31,378 nucleotides of DNA from a virus (lineage: Duplodnaviria; Heunggongvirae; Uroviricota; Caudoviricetes). The notes beneath the pieces are model-generated. The model searched no databases and was not told where the DNA came from. It worked only from the letters and a program-made list of their open reading frames with translations. Made by a program: the position numbers and the translations under genes. The stretch is taken from the IMG/VR virus record IMGVR_UViG_2667527976_000002; one strand, given 5' to 3'. This document shows positions 1,076 through 22,809 of the stretch, in pieces. The first letter of the stretch is position 1. Every line of letters begins with the position of its first letter.

Positions 1076-1990
1076 ATGCGCTCAATAAAAAAAGTAACCA
1101 TGCTCTTGGGGGGCCTCGCACTCACCTGCTCGATCGCATTTCAGGCAAGTGCAACTGAAAAATTCAAGGTCATTACAACATTTACCATCATCGCAGATAT
1201 GGCCAAAAACGTGGCTGGAGATGCTGCAGAAGTCTCATCCATAACCAAGCCCGGTGCAGAAATTCATGAGTATCAGCCTACCCCTGGCGATATTAAACGT
1301 GCGCAGGGGGCACAACTGATTCTCGCCAATGGTATGAATCTGGAATTGTGGTTCCAACGCTTTTACCAGCATCTTAATGGGGTTCCAGAAGTAATTGTCT
1401 CTTCGGGTGTGACGCCAGTAGGGATCACTGAAGGCCCCTATGAGGGCAAACCTAACCCCCATGCCTGGATGTCGCCAGATAATGCTCTGATTTACGTCGA
1501 TAATATTCGTGATGCGTTGATAAAATACGATCCGGCAAATGCACAAACCTACCAACGTAATGCCGATACTTATAAAGCCAAGATTACCCAAACCCTTGCC
1601 CCCCTGCGTAAGCAGATTGCTGAACTCCCTGAGAATCAGCGATGGATGGTCACCAGTGAAGGGGCTTTTTCTTATCTCGCACGCGATTTGGGGCTAAAAG
1701 AGCTTTATCTGTGGCCGATTAATGCCGATCAACAAGGCACGCCGCAGCAGGTACGTAAGGTTGTTGATATGGTGAAGAAAAATCATATCCCGGCAGTCTT
1801 TAGCGAGAGTACGATTTCCGATAAACCAGCGCGTCAGGTTGCGCGTGAAACCGGCGCGCACTACGGCGGTGTACTCTATGTCGATTCCCTGAGCACAGAA
1901 AACGGCCCGGTACCTACGTATATCGACCTTCTGAAGGTTACTACCAGTACGCTGGTACAGGGAATTAAAGCCGGGAAAAGGGAGAAATAA
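1076..1990 (+). CDS. sitA: Periplasmic Mn/Fe-binding protein of ABC transporter (cluster A-I / TroA-like), SitA
   Basis: 304-aa ORF with signal peptide ([26 protein letters not shown]); ATG start at 1076; stop overlaps the sitB start. Confidence 0.9.
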
Positions 1991-2817
1991 TGATGCAATC
2001 TGCGGGCATTGTCGTTAATGATGTTACTGTCACCTGGCGTAACGGGCACACAGCACTGCGCGATGCATCCTTCACAGTACCAAGTGGATCTATTGCCGCT
2101 CTGGTTGGGGTAAACGGTTCCGGAAAATCGACGTTGTTTAAAGCGATTATGGGATTTGTGCGTCTGACCAGCGGAAAGATATCTGTTCTGGGTATTCCCA
2201 CGCGACAGGCGCTACAGAAAAACCTGGTTGCCTACGTCCCTCAGTCAGAAGAGGTTGACTGGTCATTTCCTGTACTAGTGGAAGATGTGGTGATGATGGG
2301 CCGCTATGGGCACATGGGTATGTTGCGTATAGCCAAAAAGAGGGATCGTCAGATTGTCACCGATGCGCTGGAACGTGTCGATATGGTGGATTTTCGCCAT
2401 CGACAAATCGGCGAGCTTTCCGGTGGACAAAAGAAACGCGTCTTTCTGGCGAGAGCGATTGCACAGCAGGGTGATGTGATCCTGCTGGATGAACCTTTTA
2501 CCGGCGTTGATGTGAAAACCGAAGCGAAAATCATCAGCCTGTTGAGGGAGTTACGCGCGGAAGGCAAGACGATGCTTGTCTCAACGCACAATCTCGGCTC
2601 AGTCACGACATTTTGCGATTATACGGTCATGGTCAAAGGCACCGTCCTGGCAAGCGGGCCGACAGACACCACTTTTACAGCCGAGAACCTGGAGCTGGCT
2701 TTTAGCGGCGTACTGCGCCATGTCACACTTAACGGCTCGGAAGAAAGCATTATTACTGACGATGAACACCCTTTTGTGGCACATCGACCGTCAGCGGTGC
2801 AGGGGGAAGCAAGATGA
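1990..2817 (+). CDS. sitB: ABC transporter ATP-binding protein SitB
   Basis: 275 aa; Walker [13 protein letters not shown] signature LSGGQKKR, Walker B ILLDEP; start overlaps sitA stop (translational coupling). Confidence 0.9.
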
Positions 2818-3671
2818 ACGTGCTACTGGAACCCTTCAGCTATGAATATATGCTCAATGCGATGTGGGTCTCGGCGATGGTCGGCGGTCTCTGCGCTTTC
2901 CTGTCATGCTATCTGATGCTAAAAGGCTGGTCGCTGATTGGCGATGCGCTGTCGCACTCTATTGTCCCAGGTGTTGCGGGGGCATATATGCTGGGGCTTC
3001 CGTTTTCTCTGGGAGCCTTCTTTTCCGGCGGACTGGCAGCGGGCAGCATGCTGTTTCTTAACCAACGCACTCGCTTAAAAGAAGATGCCATCATCGGCCT
3101 GATCTTCTCCTCCTTTTTTGGCCTGGGGCTGTTTATGGTGTCATTGAACCCGACATCCGTGAACATTCAGACCATCGTCCTGGGCAATATTCTGGCAATC
3201 GATCCGGCGGATATCCTGCAACTCACTATCATTGGCATTCTCTCGATCATCGTGCTTTTTTTCAAATGGAAAGATCTTATGGTGACCTTTTTCGACGAGA
3301 ATCACGCTCGTGCTATTGGATTGCATCCGGGCAGATTAAAAATCCTCTTCTTCACCCTGCTGTCGGTTTCGACCGTTGCGGCGCTGCAAACGGTTGGTGC
3401 CTTTCTGGTGATCTGTCTGGTGGTGACTCCCGGTGCAACAGCATGGTTGTTAACCGATCGTTTTCCCCGCCTGCTCATAATTGCTGTAACTATTGGCAGT
3501 GTAACCAGTTTCCTCGGCGCGTGGGTCAGTTACTTTCTGGACGGCGCGACAGGTGGAATCATCGTGGTGGCGCAGACACTGCTGTTTCTTTTAGCATTTG
3601 TATTTGCGCCCACCCATGGGCTTTTGGCAAATCGTCGGCGTGCGCATAAAGCGCTGGAGGATCGCTCATGA
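2814..3671 (+). CDS. sitC: ABC transporter permease SitC
   Basis: 285-aa polytopic hydrophobic protein; start overlaps sitB stop by 4 nt. Confidence 0.9.
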
Positions 3672-4525
3672 TGGCATTATTACTGGAGCCACTGCAGTTC
3701 ACCTTTATGAGTCACGCACTGCTGATTTCACTGGTAGTTTCCATACCCTGTGCGCTGCTGTCGGTCTTTCTGGTCCTGAAAGGTTGGGCACTGATGGGTG
3801 ACGCGATGAGTCATGCGGTTTTTCCTGGCATCGTGCTTGCCTGGATTCTGGGGTTACCTCTGGCTACAGGGGCATTCGTCGCCGGAGTATTCTGCGCGGT
3901 GGCGACGGGATACCTGAAAGACAACAGCCGAATCAAGCAAGATACAGTGATGGGGATTGTTTTTTCTGGCATGTTTGCCGCAGGTCTGATCTTGTATATT
4001 GCAGTCAAACCAGACGTACATCTTGACCATATTCTTTTCGGCGACATGCTCGGGGTAACCATCGGCGATATAATCCAGACGGTGATTATTGCCGGGCTGG
4101 TTACACTTGTTATTAGCGTAAAATGGCGGGATTTTTTGCTGTTCAGCTTTGATTATCAACAGGCGCAGGTAAGCGGTTTGCATACGAGATGTCTGCATTA
4201 TGGGCTGCTGTGCATGGTCTCTCTGACCATTGTGGCGACGCTGAAAGCGGTAGGTATCATTCTCTCCATTTCTCTGCTCATTGCGCCTGGCGCCATTGCG
4301 GTACTCCTGACACAACGCTTTCATATTGCGCTCCTACTGGCGATTGGCATATCGGTAATAGTGTCAATGACTGGTGTCTGGTTGTCCTTTTTTATCGACA
4401 GTGCACCAGCTCCGACGATTGTCGTCTTATTCGCGGTTGTGTTCATCATGACGTTCACCGTTACCAGCATCAACGCACGCACAAAGGGAAACACCCATAC
4501 ACAGGATTTGTCATCACCCAATTAG
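3668..4525 (+). CDS. sitD: ABC transporter permease SitD
   Basis: 285-aa hydrophobic paralogue of SitC; ATGATG start overlaps sitC stop. Confidence 0.9.
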   Translation: MMALLLEPLQFTFMSHALLISLVVSIPCALLSVFLVLKGWALMGDAMSHAVFPGIVLAWILGLPLATGAFVAGVFCAVATGYLKDNSRIKQDTVMGIVFSGMFAAGLILYIAVKPDVHLDHILFGDMLGVTIGDIIQTVIIAGLVTLVISVKWRDFLLFSFDYQQAQVSGLHTRCLHYGLLCMVSLTIVATLKAVGIILSISLLIAPGAIAVLLTQRFHIALLLAIGISVIVSMTGVWLSFFIDSAPAPTIVVLFAVVFIMTFTVTSINARTKGNTHTQDLSSPN

Positions 4526-4689
4526 CACAACATCCGAGGGCAGCATCGTCCGCTGGCCCACAGAAGTCCGGAAAGTCATGGAAGGTCGTTGTTGGGAGGA
4601 GGTACAAATTCTCTCATGCAAAAAATACGTAAAATCGATAATAGCTGGAAATAATTCAATACATGCACTCTCGAAAGTGCATCAGCCAA

Positions 4690-4723
4690 CCGCAGAACGT
4701 TATTGCATACAACGTTTCTGCGG
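4690..4723. repeat. Imperfect palindrome (12/13-bp arms, 9-nt loop) in the sitD to tail-fibre spacer
   Basis: ccgcagaacgtt-attgcatac-aacgtttctgcgg; a second shorter palindrome atgcact-ctcgaa-agtgcat lies at 4663-4682. Neither is followed by a T-run on either strand. Confidence 0.4.
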
Positions 4724-4876
4724 CATAATCCCAATGATTACTCCCTGACAGGGTTCGTAGGCCACTCAATATCAGGTGCAGTTGATGTATCAACACGGTT
4801 CAGCAGCATCCGATACTTTTTCCAGGCTTCCAGCAACGGGGTTTCTTCCTCCGTTGCATATACAGCTCACCTTTTT

Positions 4877-9007: not shown

Positions 9008-9607
9008 TCAGAACTTATAACCGACACCCACGATGAAACCGTCAGTGCGCCAGTCACCACTGCCGGAGCCTTCATAAGCAATATCAATGGCCACGGATTC
9101 GGTCGGGTTAAACTGCACGCCAGCTCCCCACGCCAGAGACGTGTTGCTGTGGCGACCGTCATCACTTCCGGTCAGCACATCGTGCGTTTTCCCCTTGTTG
9201 TCAGTTACGCGGAGGTAATCCCCGGAAAAAGTCGAAACACGGCTGTAAGCCATACCCGCCATCGCATACGCGCTGAACCATTCATTCACGCGCACAGACG
9301 GCCCCGCCATCACGCTGAACCAGCGGTTACGCACGGAATCTTTATGCCAGCGGGTATCGCTGTAACGGGTCAGCTGACGATTCTTGTATCCTGCATAACT
9401 GAATGACGTCACCAGCCCCAGCGTGTCCGTAAATTCATAACGGTATTTCACGTTAATGCCCTTCAGGTCATCACTGCCTGGCATATCAGTATGGGTCTGA
9501 AGATACCCGGCGCTTAGTGTGGACTGATGCTCTGCTGCGCTCGCTGGCGTACCAGCGGCAACCAGCCAGACTACTGCGGACAGAATAACAGCACATAATT
9601 TACGCAT
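9008..9607 (-). CDS. lom: Outer-membrane protein Lom (Ail/Lom family beta-barrel)
   Basis: 199 aa with signal peptide MRKLCAVILSAVVWLVAAGTPASA; body closely matches recalled lambda Lom; ATG at 9605-9607. Confidence 0.9.
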   Translation of the reverse strand: MRKLCAVILSAVVWLVAAGTPASAAEHQSTLSAGYLQTHTDMPGSDDLKGINVKYRYEFTDTLGLVTSFSYAGYKNRQLTRYSDTRWHKDSVRNRWFSVMAGPSVRVNEWFSAYAMAGMAYSRVSTFSGDYLRVTDNKGKTHDVLTGSDDGRHSNTSLAWGAGVQFNPTESVAIDIAYEGSGSGDWRTDGFIVGVGYKF

Positions 9608-9674: not shown

Positions 9675-12600
9675 TCAGCTGATACTGATGCCTGCAGTGG
9701 CTTTCTTCATCACAACAACCAGCAAATCGCTGATACTTGCTGTGGGATACCAACCATTTACCCACCATGCTGATACAGAAAACTCCAGTGTCATTACACC
9801 ACTGCCTGCAGGCATATCAATAACACCCGTGTAAATCAGAGTATTATCCAGAGCCGTTCGGTTATAAATTTCAGCCCCGTTTTTCTTCACTATCAGGCGG
9901 CATGACGAATAAGTATCGCTATTCTCCCGCTCATGTCTGGCACCGCAGAAAGCCACCGCTGGAATAACAATTTGCCGGTCAAACGACTGATCGTCATAAA
10001 CCCTGACGGTAATAGTCCCTGATGGCCACCGCTCCGGTGCACGGGAGTCCCGGGGGAAAGCTTTGCCCACTGTTTTAACGAGATCGCCTTCAATCTGGTT
10101 CGCGGACAGTTTTCCCAGAACCCGACAGTTCTCGTTAATCGTGACATTATTGAGCGTCCCGGAGTTCGCATTCACGTTACCGCTGATATCGGCATTTTTC
10201 GCCGTCAGCCGCCCGTCCGGTGTCAGGGAAAATACCGGAGGATTGCCGCCACTGGTAATGGTGGGAGCCGTCAGATACTTCAGGAACACTTCGTTCATGA
10301 ATATCTGGTTGCCCTGCGCCACAAACATCGGCGTTTCATTCCCGTTTGCCGGGTCAATAAACGCGATACGGTTAGCGGCAACCAGGAACTGGCTCAGTTT
10401 GCCTTCCTCCGTATCCTCCATACTAAGGCCAAGCCCCGCGACATAATGCCTGCCGTCTTCGGTCTGCTCAATTTTGACGCCCCACATGGCATTCCATTTA
10501 TCGTTGGCGTCCTTCCACTCTTTCGAAAACTCCTCCAGTTTGCTGGCGTTATCCTCCGTCAGCTCGACTTTTTCCAGCAGCTCCTTGCCGAGATGGGATT
10601 CGGTTATCTGGCCTTTGAAAAAATCCAGGTAACCTTCCGCATCATCGCTCGGCTGACCAACAGCCTCCACGAATGCCGATTTGCCAACGGTGTTCACACT
10701 GCGGATATAAAAGTAATAATCATGGCCCGGTTTGATATTGATACTGGCAGCTATCCAGTACAGCGCCGTACCAAGATAGCGGGCTGTGGTCTCAACCTGC
10801 CTGATATCGGTAATCCGCTTTTCCGAGAACCAGAACTCAAACTGTACCGTCGGATCATAAACCGCAAGATGCGGCGTGGCAGTTATCTGAAAATAGCCCG
10901 GCGTCAGCTCAATCCGCGACGGCGCTGCCGGTGCGGCAATCCGGAACGATACCGATGCCGGATCGCCCTGCTGTCCCCACGCATTTACCGCCCGGACCGT
11001 CAGCGTGTAACGCCCCAGCGCCAGTTGCCTGAAGCGGTATGTGGTTTCCGTCGTCCTGGCCGTGCTGACCAGCCGCTCACTGCCGTCATCCGCTGCCACG
11101 GTCAGGCGAAGCATAAAGCTCACCCCCTTCACCACCTTCGGCGTATCCCAGCGCGCCAGCACCTGATACTCCCCGCTGTCTGAGGTGACTTCGGCAGTCA
11201 GGTGCTGCACCGCAGGCGGCGTGACACCATTCACCGTGCCGCTCTGGTCGCCGTCAAAGTGCGCCCCGTTATCCACGATGGCCTCTTTTTCCGGCACATG
11301 CTGCACGGCGGTGATGGCATACGTGCCGTCGTCGTTCTCACGGATACTCACGCAGCGGAACAGGCGCTGGCGCAGCGTCGGCAGCTTCAGCCCCCACACG
11401 CTGTATTCAGCAACACCGTCAGGAACACGGCTCACTTTTACCTTCACGCCGTCGGTGACGGACTGAACCTCCACGCTGACCGGATTGCCACTTCCGTCAA
11501 CCAGACTTATCAGCGTGGTACCGGAGGATGGCAGCGTGATTTCACGGTCGAGCGTCAGCGTCCGGGTCTGGCTGTTCACCGCCAGCACGCGCCCGCCGAT
11601 GCTGATACCCGCATAGTCATCATCACAGATTTCAATGACATCCCCCGGTACATGGCGAAGCCCTTCCGCACCCACGCTGAAGTCCACGGTCTGCGTTTCC
11701 AGCAGTTCCGTTTTAATCAGCCACAGCCCGGCGCGGTGCGCCTGCCCCCGGCTGGTACAGCCAAAGGCATCCATCTTCGTGACGTTACGACCGTAACGGG
11801 CAATGGCCTGCGTATCTTCAACAAGCTCTGTCGCCGTCTCCCAGCCGTTGTTCGGGTCAATCCAGTTCACCTCAACGGCATTATGGCGGTCCTTCAGGGC
11901 GCTGAAGCTGTAGCGGAACGGCGCGCCATCATCCGGCATCACCACATTACTGCGGTTATAGGTCCACACCTTATCTGATGGTCGGTCCTGCACGAACGTC
12001 AGCGTCTGCCCGTTCCATACCGGCATACAGCGCATCGCCGAGCAGAAATCACTGAGCACATCCCACGCCTTGCGCTGTGTGGTCAGCCAGGCATTACAGG
12101 TGATGCGCGGCTCCGTGCCACCAAAGCCATCCGGCACCGACTGGTCGCAATTCTGGCCGATGACATACAGCGCCCATTTGTCCACATCCGCCGCACCGAG
12201 ACGCTTCCCCATGCCGTAGCGCGGATGGGTCAGCATATCCCACAGACACCAGGCCATGTTGTTGCTGTATGCTGGCTTAAACGTTCCGTCCCAGATACCG
12301 CTGTATTGTCGCGTCTGCGGGTTATAGTTCGACGGCACCTGCAGAATGCGCCCGCGAAGATGATAATTACGACTCACCTGCTGGCTGCCGAACTGCTCCG
12401 AGTCCACCTGTACGCTGACCAGTGCCGTGTTCGGGTAGCACTGTTTCACATCGATGATTTCGGTGTATGACGACCAGAGCGTTTTGTTCTGCAGCTGGTC
12501 TGTGGTGCTGTCCGGCGTCATCCTGCGCATCCGGATATTAAACGGGCGCGGCGGCAGGTTATCCACCACCACCGAGGCCAGATACTGCGAGGTGGTTTTG

Positions 12601-13070
12601 CCTTTAATGGTGATGTCTTTTTCCGTCACCCAGCCACCGTTACGCTGTATCTGAACCAGCAGGCGGACTTCCGACGGATTCCGGTCCCCCTTTGAGGTGG
12701 TTTCCACCAGTGCCTGCACACCGAAGGTAAAGCGCAGACGGTCGATGTTTGCAGACGTGATGGTCCGGGTAATCGGCGTGTCGTACTTCACTTCCGTACC
12801 CAGCACCGTCTCGGAGCCGGAGGATTCAAATCCCTCCGGCGGTGTCTGCTCCTGCTCACCTGCCCGGAACACCACCGTGACACCGGAGATATTGGTATTC
12901 CCCTCACTGTCCAGCACCGGCGTACTGTTCAGCAGCACACTTTTTAATCCGTCCACCGGACCTTCAATCGGCCCTTCACTGATGGCGTCTATCACGCTCA
13001 GCATCTGGGATGATTTCAGGTTGTCCTTCGCTTCGCGCGGGGTATGCCCCTTACTGCTGCCTTTACCCAT
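9675..13070 (-). CDS. J: Tail tip / host-specificity protein J (central tail fibre)
   Basis: 1131 aa; N-terminus [20 protein letters not shown]... and most of the body match recalled lambda J; the C-terminal ~150 aa diverge. Confidence 0.95.
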
Positions 13071-22420: not shown

Positions 22421-22476
22421 AAAAAAAATCCCGTAAAAAAAGCCGCACAGGCGGCCTTTAGTGATGAAGGGTAAAG

Positions 22477-22809
22477 TTAAACGATGCTGATTGCCGTTCC
22501 GGCAAACGCGGTCCGTTTTTTCGTCTCGTCGCTGGCAGCCTCCGGCCAGAGCACATCCTCATAACGGAACGTGCCGGACTTGTAGAACGTCAGTGTGGTG
22601 CTGGTCTGGTCAGCAGCAACTGCAAGAATGCCAACGGCAGCACCGTCGGTGGTGCCATCCCACGCAACCAGCTTACGGGTGGAGGTGTCCAGCATCAGCG
22701 GGGTCATTGCAGGCGCTTTCGCACTCAATCCGCCGGGCGCGGTTGCGGTATGAGCCGGGTCACTGTTGCCCAGCGGCTGGTAATGGGTAAAGGTTTCTTT
22801 GCTCGTCAT
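22477..22809 (-). CDS. D: Head decoration protein D
   Basis: 110 aa from ATG 22807-22809 ([27 protein letters not shown]...), lambda gpD-like. Confidence 0.9.

Follow-up and report, generated by a model that had tools for sequence, protein, structure and literature searches.

The window analysed here is the whole stretch of 31,378 nucleotides of IMG/VR record IMGVR_UViG_2667527976_000002. It contains a gene J, coding for the tail tip attachment or host specificity protein, that closes the tail operon: it follows the I, K, L and M genes and precedes lom and the side tail fibre gene, and homologs of lambda head and tail genes lie upstream of it (as seen from the ORFs of the window). An identical arrangement is annotated in Escherichia coli UPEC132, over a stretch that is 100% identical, and in phage PhiR47_1. 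Because the gene order is that of lambda and recurs in these two records, we consider the window as part of a lambda-like E. coli prophage. Its late operon is open all the way between terminase and the side tail fibre gene. On the J protein six Pfam models are found above their cut-offs and in the order known from lambda (FNIII-A_GpJ, Phage-tail_3, Ig_J, Ig_J_second, Phage_Tail_Tip and Ig_GpJ_C; E-values from 1e-35 to 1e-43). Two ORFs overlapping J, at 9893-10171 on the minus strand and at 10063-10446 on the plus strand, both lie wholly inside the conserved J reading frame. All features are collected in Table 1.

Table 1. Coordinates of gene J, its segments and the neighbouring features in the window.
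Feature	Position	Strand	Basis or remark
Gene J (tail tip attachment / host specificity protein)	9675..13070	-	ORF list; 3396 nt, 1131 aa + stop
Lambda-like part of J, aa 1-982 (hub domains, FNIII domains, helical shaft, central straight fibre)	10125..13070	-	943/982 identical to lambda
Conserved junction stretch, aa 960-982	10125..10193	-	last stretch common to all aligned J alleles
Divergent receptor-binding segment, aa 983-1131 + stop, assigned to the 1A2-type allele	9675..10124	-	identities to other J alleles
Ig_GpJ_C (PF12421), Ig-like receptor-binding domain proper, aa 1001-1131	9678..10070	-	Pfam
Hypervariable sub-segment 1, aa 1041-1062	9885..9950	-	7/16 differences vs O157/1A2 type; dS 1.08
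Hypervariable sub-segment 2, aa 1081-1106	9753..9830	-	T/S1081, S/H1090, V/H1092, W/L1103, G/N1106; dS 0.88
lom (Ail/Lom outer-membrane protein)	9008..9607	-	Pfam Ail_Lom, E=6e-122
Side tail fibre, 801 aa	6544..8949	-	lambda-Stf-like N-terminus (PF08400)
ORF of 93 aa	6263..6544	-	without Pfam match
Tail-fibre-like protein, 346 aa	5213..6253	-	C-terminal Peptidase_S74 (endosialidase-type intramolecular chaperone)
Stretch of 173 nt	4688..4858		90% identical to lambda 22437-22608
Four genes matching SitABCD	1076..4525	+	Pfam ZnuA, ABC_tran and two ABC-3

Compared with lambda J (NC_001416, 15505-18903) the protein shows 1003 identities over residues 1-1131 (89%, BLASTP), but these are distributed very unevenly. 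Within lambda residues 1-982 the two proteins agree at 943 of 982 positions (96%), and within residues 983-1132 at 60 of 150 (40%). On the DNA level the identity in bins of 90 nt amounts to 86-100% up to about residue 960, to 73% for residues 961-990 and to roughly 50% beyond. The continuous blastn block shared with lambda (92% identical) ends at window position 10125, the last base of J codon 982, and past this position no DNA homology to lambda was detectable by blastn over the rest of J. Such a drop from 96% to 40%, located at one point, by far exceeds what chance would produce. This confirms the initial annotation, which had described J as lambda-like over about 980 residues and divergent over the last 150 or so, and had placed the divergent part at 9678-10130, an upper bound within 5 nt of the breakpoint. 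The 41-residue peptide it quoted from the C-terminus is present in the protein, and high identity of this end to lambda J was not found. The stretch of residues 960-982 just before the divergence is likely the recombination joint.

Modular exchange of the receptor-binding end of J is a textbook example of lambdoid mosaicism, and the J tip swap seen here is an already known, ordinary and well-documented module swap. The exchanged piece is larger than the end of J. Past the J stop codon blastn finds no lambda homology at first; the next homologous DNA begins at window position 9135, in the last ~130 nt of lom, and the Lom protein of the window is only 45% identical to lambda Lom. This gap between 9135 and 10125 together with the low Lom identity shows that the exchanged cassette comprises the receptor-binding end of J plus most of lom, and not the J end alone.

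Further features lie beyond lom. The side tail fibre contains long repeats rich in Ala, Ser, Thr, Glu and Lys, and its C-terminal half diverges from PhiR47_1 Stf (58% identity overall) and has a lower GC content of 0.38-0.45; it is a second mosaic specificity determinant. The tail-fibre-like protein with the Peptidase_S74 domain is preceded by the gene of the 93-residue protein; a similar pair is found in PhiR47_1 and may represent an extra fibre or spike that is absent from lambda. The short stretch matching the end of lambda tfa and the DNA just beyond it has a counterpart in UPEC132 that is annotated as a partial tail-fibre-assembly gene, and seems to be what is left at the site of an older fibre module that was replaced. 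The four genes with matches to SitABCD, an iron/manganese ABC transporter, lie directly beyond the tail fibre genes. UPEC132 has them annotated as sitA-D, with a partial gene for isocitrate dehydrogenase (icd) behind them, which suggests that a prophage integrated at icd carries them as cargo at its end.

The divergent end of J corresponds to a known domain. PF12421 matches residues 1001-1131 over all 135 positions of its profile (E=5.6e-37; score 127 bits, cut-off 26.2), and this end-to-end match means that we deal with an alternative allele of the J receptor-binding domain and not with a new domain. The view that the divergent part is the domain that binds LamB in lambda was therefore correct. 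A phmmer search of PDB with the last 186 residues of J retrieved gpJ 713 of A8 (9wca/9wcb, E=1e-72) and lambda J (8xcj, 8iyk, E of about 1e-49). A solved structure that is 61-68% identical and the strong Pfam match fix the fold of the segment.

Among 50,697 phage records searched by tblastn with the J C-terminus the matches fall into discrete classes. The class at 91-99% includes PhiR47_1, many Stx2a and PPompW prophages of O157, 2G7b and JLK-2012; 1H12, 4A7, BP-4795 and Stx1a phages follow at 62-65%, Fels-1 at 48%, lambda at 44.6% and finally 434, WGPS6 and cdtI at 43-44%. For those alleles that were put into a multiple alignment (residues 983-1131, J of the window as reference) the identities are 99% for PhiR47_1, 91% for the O157 phage WGPS2, 66% for 1H12, 61% for A8, 48% for Fels-1, 41% for 434 and 40% for lambda. 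gpJ 1A2 reaches 90%, a figure that is approximate because its sequence was rebuilt from an OCR-damaged listing with seven unreadable codons. The DNA of gpJ 1A2 and A8 in the supplement of PMC11338833 is recoded, was machine-read and carries indels; for this reason a frameshift-tolerant dynamic programming alignment was applied, by which the 1A2 tail agrees with J of the window at 165 of 183 positions (90%) over readable codons and the A8 tail at about 64%. gpJ 1A2 itself is 96% identical to the O157 type represented by WGPS2. Judged from these identities, the segment of the window is a member of the 1A2-type allele class. In the J of a UTI89 prophage the last 186 residues are 100% identical to those of the window.

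It might be argued that J is a decaying remnant of a defective prophage and that its divergent end has no current function. Many lambdoid prophages of E. coli are defective, and in UPEC132, whose locus is 100% identical, the side tail fibre gene is annotated as broken and is followed by a tail-fibre-assembly remnant. We regard such decay as very improbable, since the J frame is open over its full length with all six Pfam domains, the late operon is open in the window from terminase to side tail fibre, and synonymous changes greatly exceed non-synonymous ones in comparison with the O157 type (omega 0.15). Furthermore, a C-terminal domain that is 99% identical is carried by PhiR47_1, which was deposited as a phage genome and has a host listed, so the allele must be regarded as functional.

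The distribution of these alleles in nature was assessed in 5426 complete E. coli genomes with the 456-nt divergent segment as query and a DNA identity of at least 88%. The allele class of the window occurs in 3355 of them, the median copy number being two per genome, and 355 records match at an identity of at least 95%. The segment of lambda itself was found in 98 of the 5426 genomes, always with at least 99% identity, and the five carriers among the matches listed are laboratory K-12, B and DE3 strains. Hence, the LamB-binding allele of lambda is the rare and unusual one in nature and the class described here is the common natural one.

The receptor of this class can be approached via its relatives. 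In the chimeras gpJ 1A2 and gpJ A8 (Brödel et al., Nature 2024, PMC11338833) lambda J is joined at residue 964 to the C-terminus of a J protein that occurs naturally in E. coli prophages. Lambda particles with these proteins were selected on a lamB deletion recipient in search of another receptor, and in delivery assays with a lamB/ompC double deletion strain complemented by plasmid-borne OmpC variants 21 of 23 variants supported efficient delivery by A8, 1A2 or both (PMC11338833). A8 accepts the OmpC of both K-12 and EDL933, whereas 1A2 accepts OmpC of EDL933 but not of K-12; 1A2 particles also delivered DNA into UTI89 (PMC11338833). PDB entry 9wcb, with three chains of A8 gpJ 713 and three of OmpC, represents a solved receptor complex of the neighbouring allele class. 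The 434-type domain, which is present in WGPS6, the closest relative of phi330, targets OmpC as well. Other J proteins illustrate the variability of receptor use: LamB is the receptor of lambda and Phi21, in both of which porin receptors were changed or added by one to four mutations, Gifsy-1 J binds OmpC, OmpX and BtuB, and in other siphophages LamB-using J domains unrelated to that of lambda were found. A receptor-prediction preprint from 2026 covers GpJ of the Drexlerviridae type and excludes the lambda C-terminus. Full-text literature searches retrieved no published receptor data for PhiR47_1, no paper on the A8 gpJ-OmpC structure and no temperate-phage study on ECOR13.

From these sequence relationships we conclude that the J allele of the window probably binds OmpC. 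Three allele classes (434, A8 and 1A2) with 41-90% identity to it use this porin, so that OmpC use appears robust across J alleles, and since UTI89 carries the exact allele and takes up 1A2 particles, the OmpC of this host lineage is evidently accepted by a member of the class. Sequence class and receptor do not correspond one-to-one, as the 434, A8 and 1A2 types share only about 40-60% identity and all use OmpC. This is also a point that could be raised for continued recognition of LamB, i.e. that distant alleles can share a receptor just as the three OmpC-using classes do. The domain of the window belongs to the same fold family as that of lambda (PF12421), and LamB is used by the unrelated J domains of siphophages mentioned above. 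Nevertheless, with only 40% identity to the lambda domain, and with the closest characterised relative 1A2 having been recovered on a lamB deletion strain and being OmpC-dependent, recognition of LamB has hardly any likelihood. The initial annotation had proposed a receptor other than LamB and an alignment with J proteins of known receptor. In this alignment gpJ 1A2 (about 90%) is the nearest characterised protein, followed by A8 (61%); the proposal is thereby well supported and can be narrowed to OmpC as the predicted receptor. This provides a receptor prediction for a prophage family that is common in uropathogenic and other E. coli.

How OmpC binding may lead to infection can be outlined on the basis of lambda. 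There four loops at the bottom of the trimeric receptor-binding domain enter the mouth of the LamB trimer on its extracellular side (Ge and Wang, PMC11101478). The bases of the domain then spread, the beta-prism fibre twists, the helical shaft flips, the FNIII strings are released and the tail tip opens (PMC11101478). As the upstream 982 residues of J are 96% identical to lambda, the signal-transmission machinery is presumably the same: tail-tip hub, two FNIII domains, helical shaft and beta-prism fibre would relay the receptor-bound signal to tail opening. The Ig-like receptor-binding domain from residue 983 onwards has been exchanged by recombination, probably at the conserved joint of residues 960-982, and as a trimer it would dock with its bottom loops to OmpC, likewise a trimeric porin, and not to maltoporin LamB. 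Binding to OmpC would then start a conformational cascade of the lambda type that ends with DNA ejection. At present, such an OmpC-triggered lambda cascade is the best-supported reading of J in the window.

Within the receptor-binding domain a second level of mosaicism is visible. At residues 983-1131 the window departs from the O157/1A2 type in 16 amino acids, and 12 of these fall into the two hypervariable sub-segments given in Table 1, which are presumed to be loops in contact with the receptor. Compared with the O157 type, dS is 0.09 at residues 983-1040 and reaches 0.9-1.1 in the two variable segments, a tenfold variation. Positive selection between the sub-alleles was tested and gave no sign, omega being at most 0.2 everywhere. 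The jump in dS combined with low omega looks like old polymorphism that was shuffled by recombination within the domain and not like recent positive selection. In lambda J the hot spots for indels and host range are positions 1048-1049, 1077-1078 and 1107, and D1107K is required for the use of OmpF (Maddamsetti et al. 2018, PMC6646904). Sub-segment 1 aligns with the indel hot spot at 1048-1049. G1106 of the window pairs with D1107 of lambda in the multiple alignment, but a pairwise alignment shifts it by one to two residues, so that this correspondence is uncertain.

Since the differences from 1A2 are located at host-range and indel hot spots of lambda, the specificity could differ. The uropathogenic-strain subtype might recognise another porin or discriminate sharply between the OmpC variants of different E. 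coli lineages, which we consider doubtful. In that case the domain would be of the 1A2 class with its loops retargeted to another outer-membrane protein (e.g., OmpF) or to a narrow set of OmpC variants. Lambda and Phi21 need few mutations to gain OmpF or OmpC as a further receptor, 1A2 already tells OmpC variants apart and Gifsy-1 J binds three different receptors. Retargeting is nonetheless unlikely in view of the 90% identity to an OmpC user, of the more distant A8 (61%) and 434 (41%) classes that also use OmpC, of the UTI89 lineage, which possesses this very allele and admits 1A2 particles, and of an omega in the variable segments so low that it does not point to recent adaptive change. If it were true, the shuffling of sub-alleles within the domain would determine the lineages that are open to these prophages. 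With OmpC as the probable receptor, the clustered sub-allele differences are candidate positions for tuning the specificity for OmpC variants in engineered lambda delivery particles.

With respect to known systems, exactly this phenomenon was described by Maddamsetti et al. (2018, PMC6646904), who analysed 1207 J homologs, mostly from prophages, and found that variation is concentrated in a "specificity region" of residues 960-1132 with its own recombination history; natural allele classes are given there without receptor assignment. The allele class itself is characterised functionally (Brödel et al.) and a related class structurally, and the exact protein is annotated in many RefSeq genomes, where the product of the 100%-identical loci is named gpJ. 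The closest characterised counterpart is gpJ 1A2, which combines a lambda-like body with a C-terminus of the same class at the same conserved joint. It differs from J of the window in about 15 residues, mostly at positions 1041-1062 and 1081-1106, and is nearest to the O157-prophage subtype, whereas the window represents the uropathogenic-strain subtype. A8 gpJ, an OmpC binder, shares the Ig_GpJ_C family and aligns over its full length (E=1e-72) but has a deletion of 4 residues after FPR and an insertion of 5-6 residues in the loop at about residue 1047. The domain of lambda J is of the same family, occupies the same position and has the same length within one residue; in contrast, its identity from residue 983 on is as low as 40% and its receptor is LamB (PDB 8xcj, 8xck). 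Finally, the J domains of 434, WGPS6 and phi330 are C-terminal Ig-like domains too, with the 434 type targeting OmpC, but with 41% identity and other loop lengths they constitute a separate allele class.
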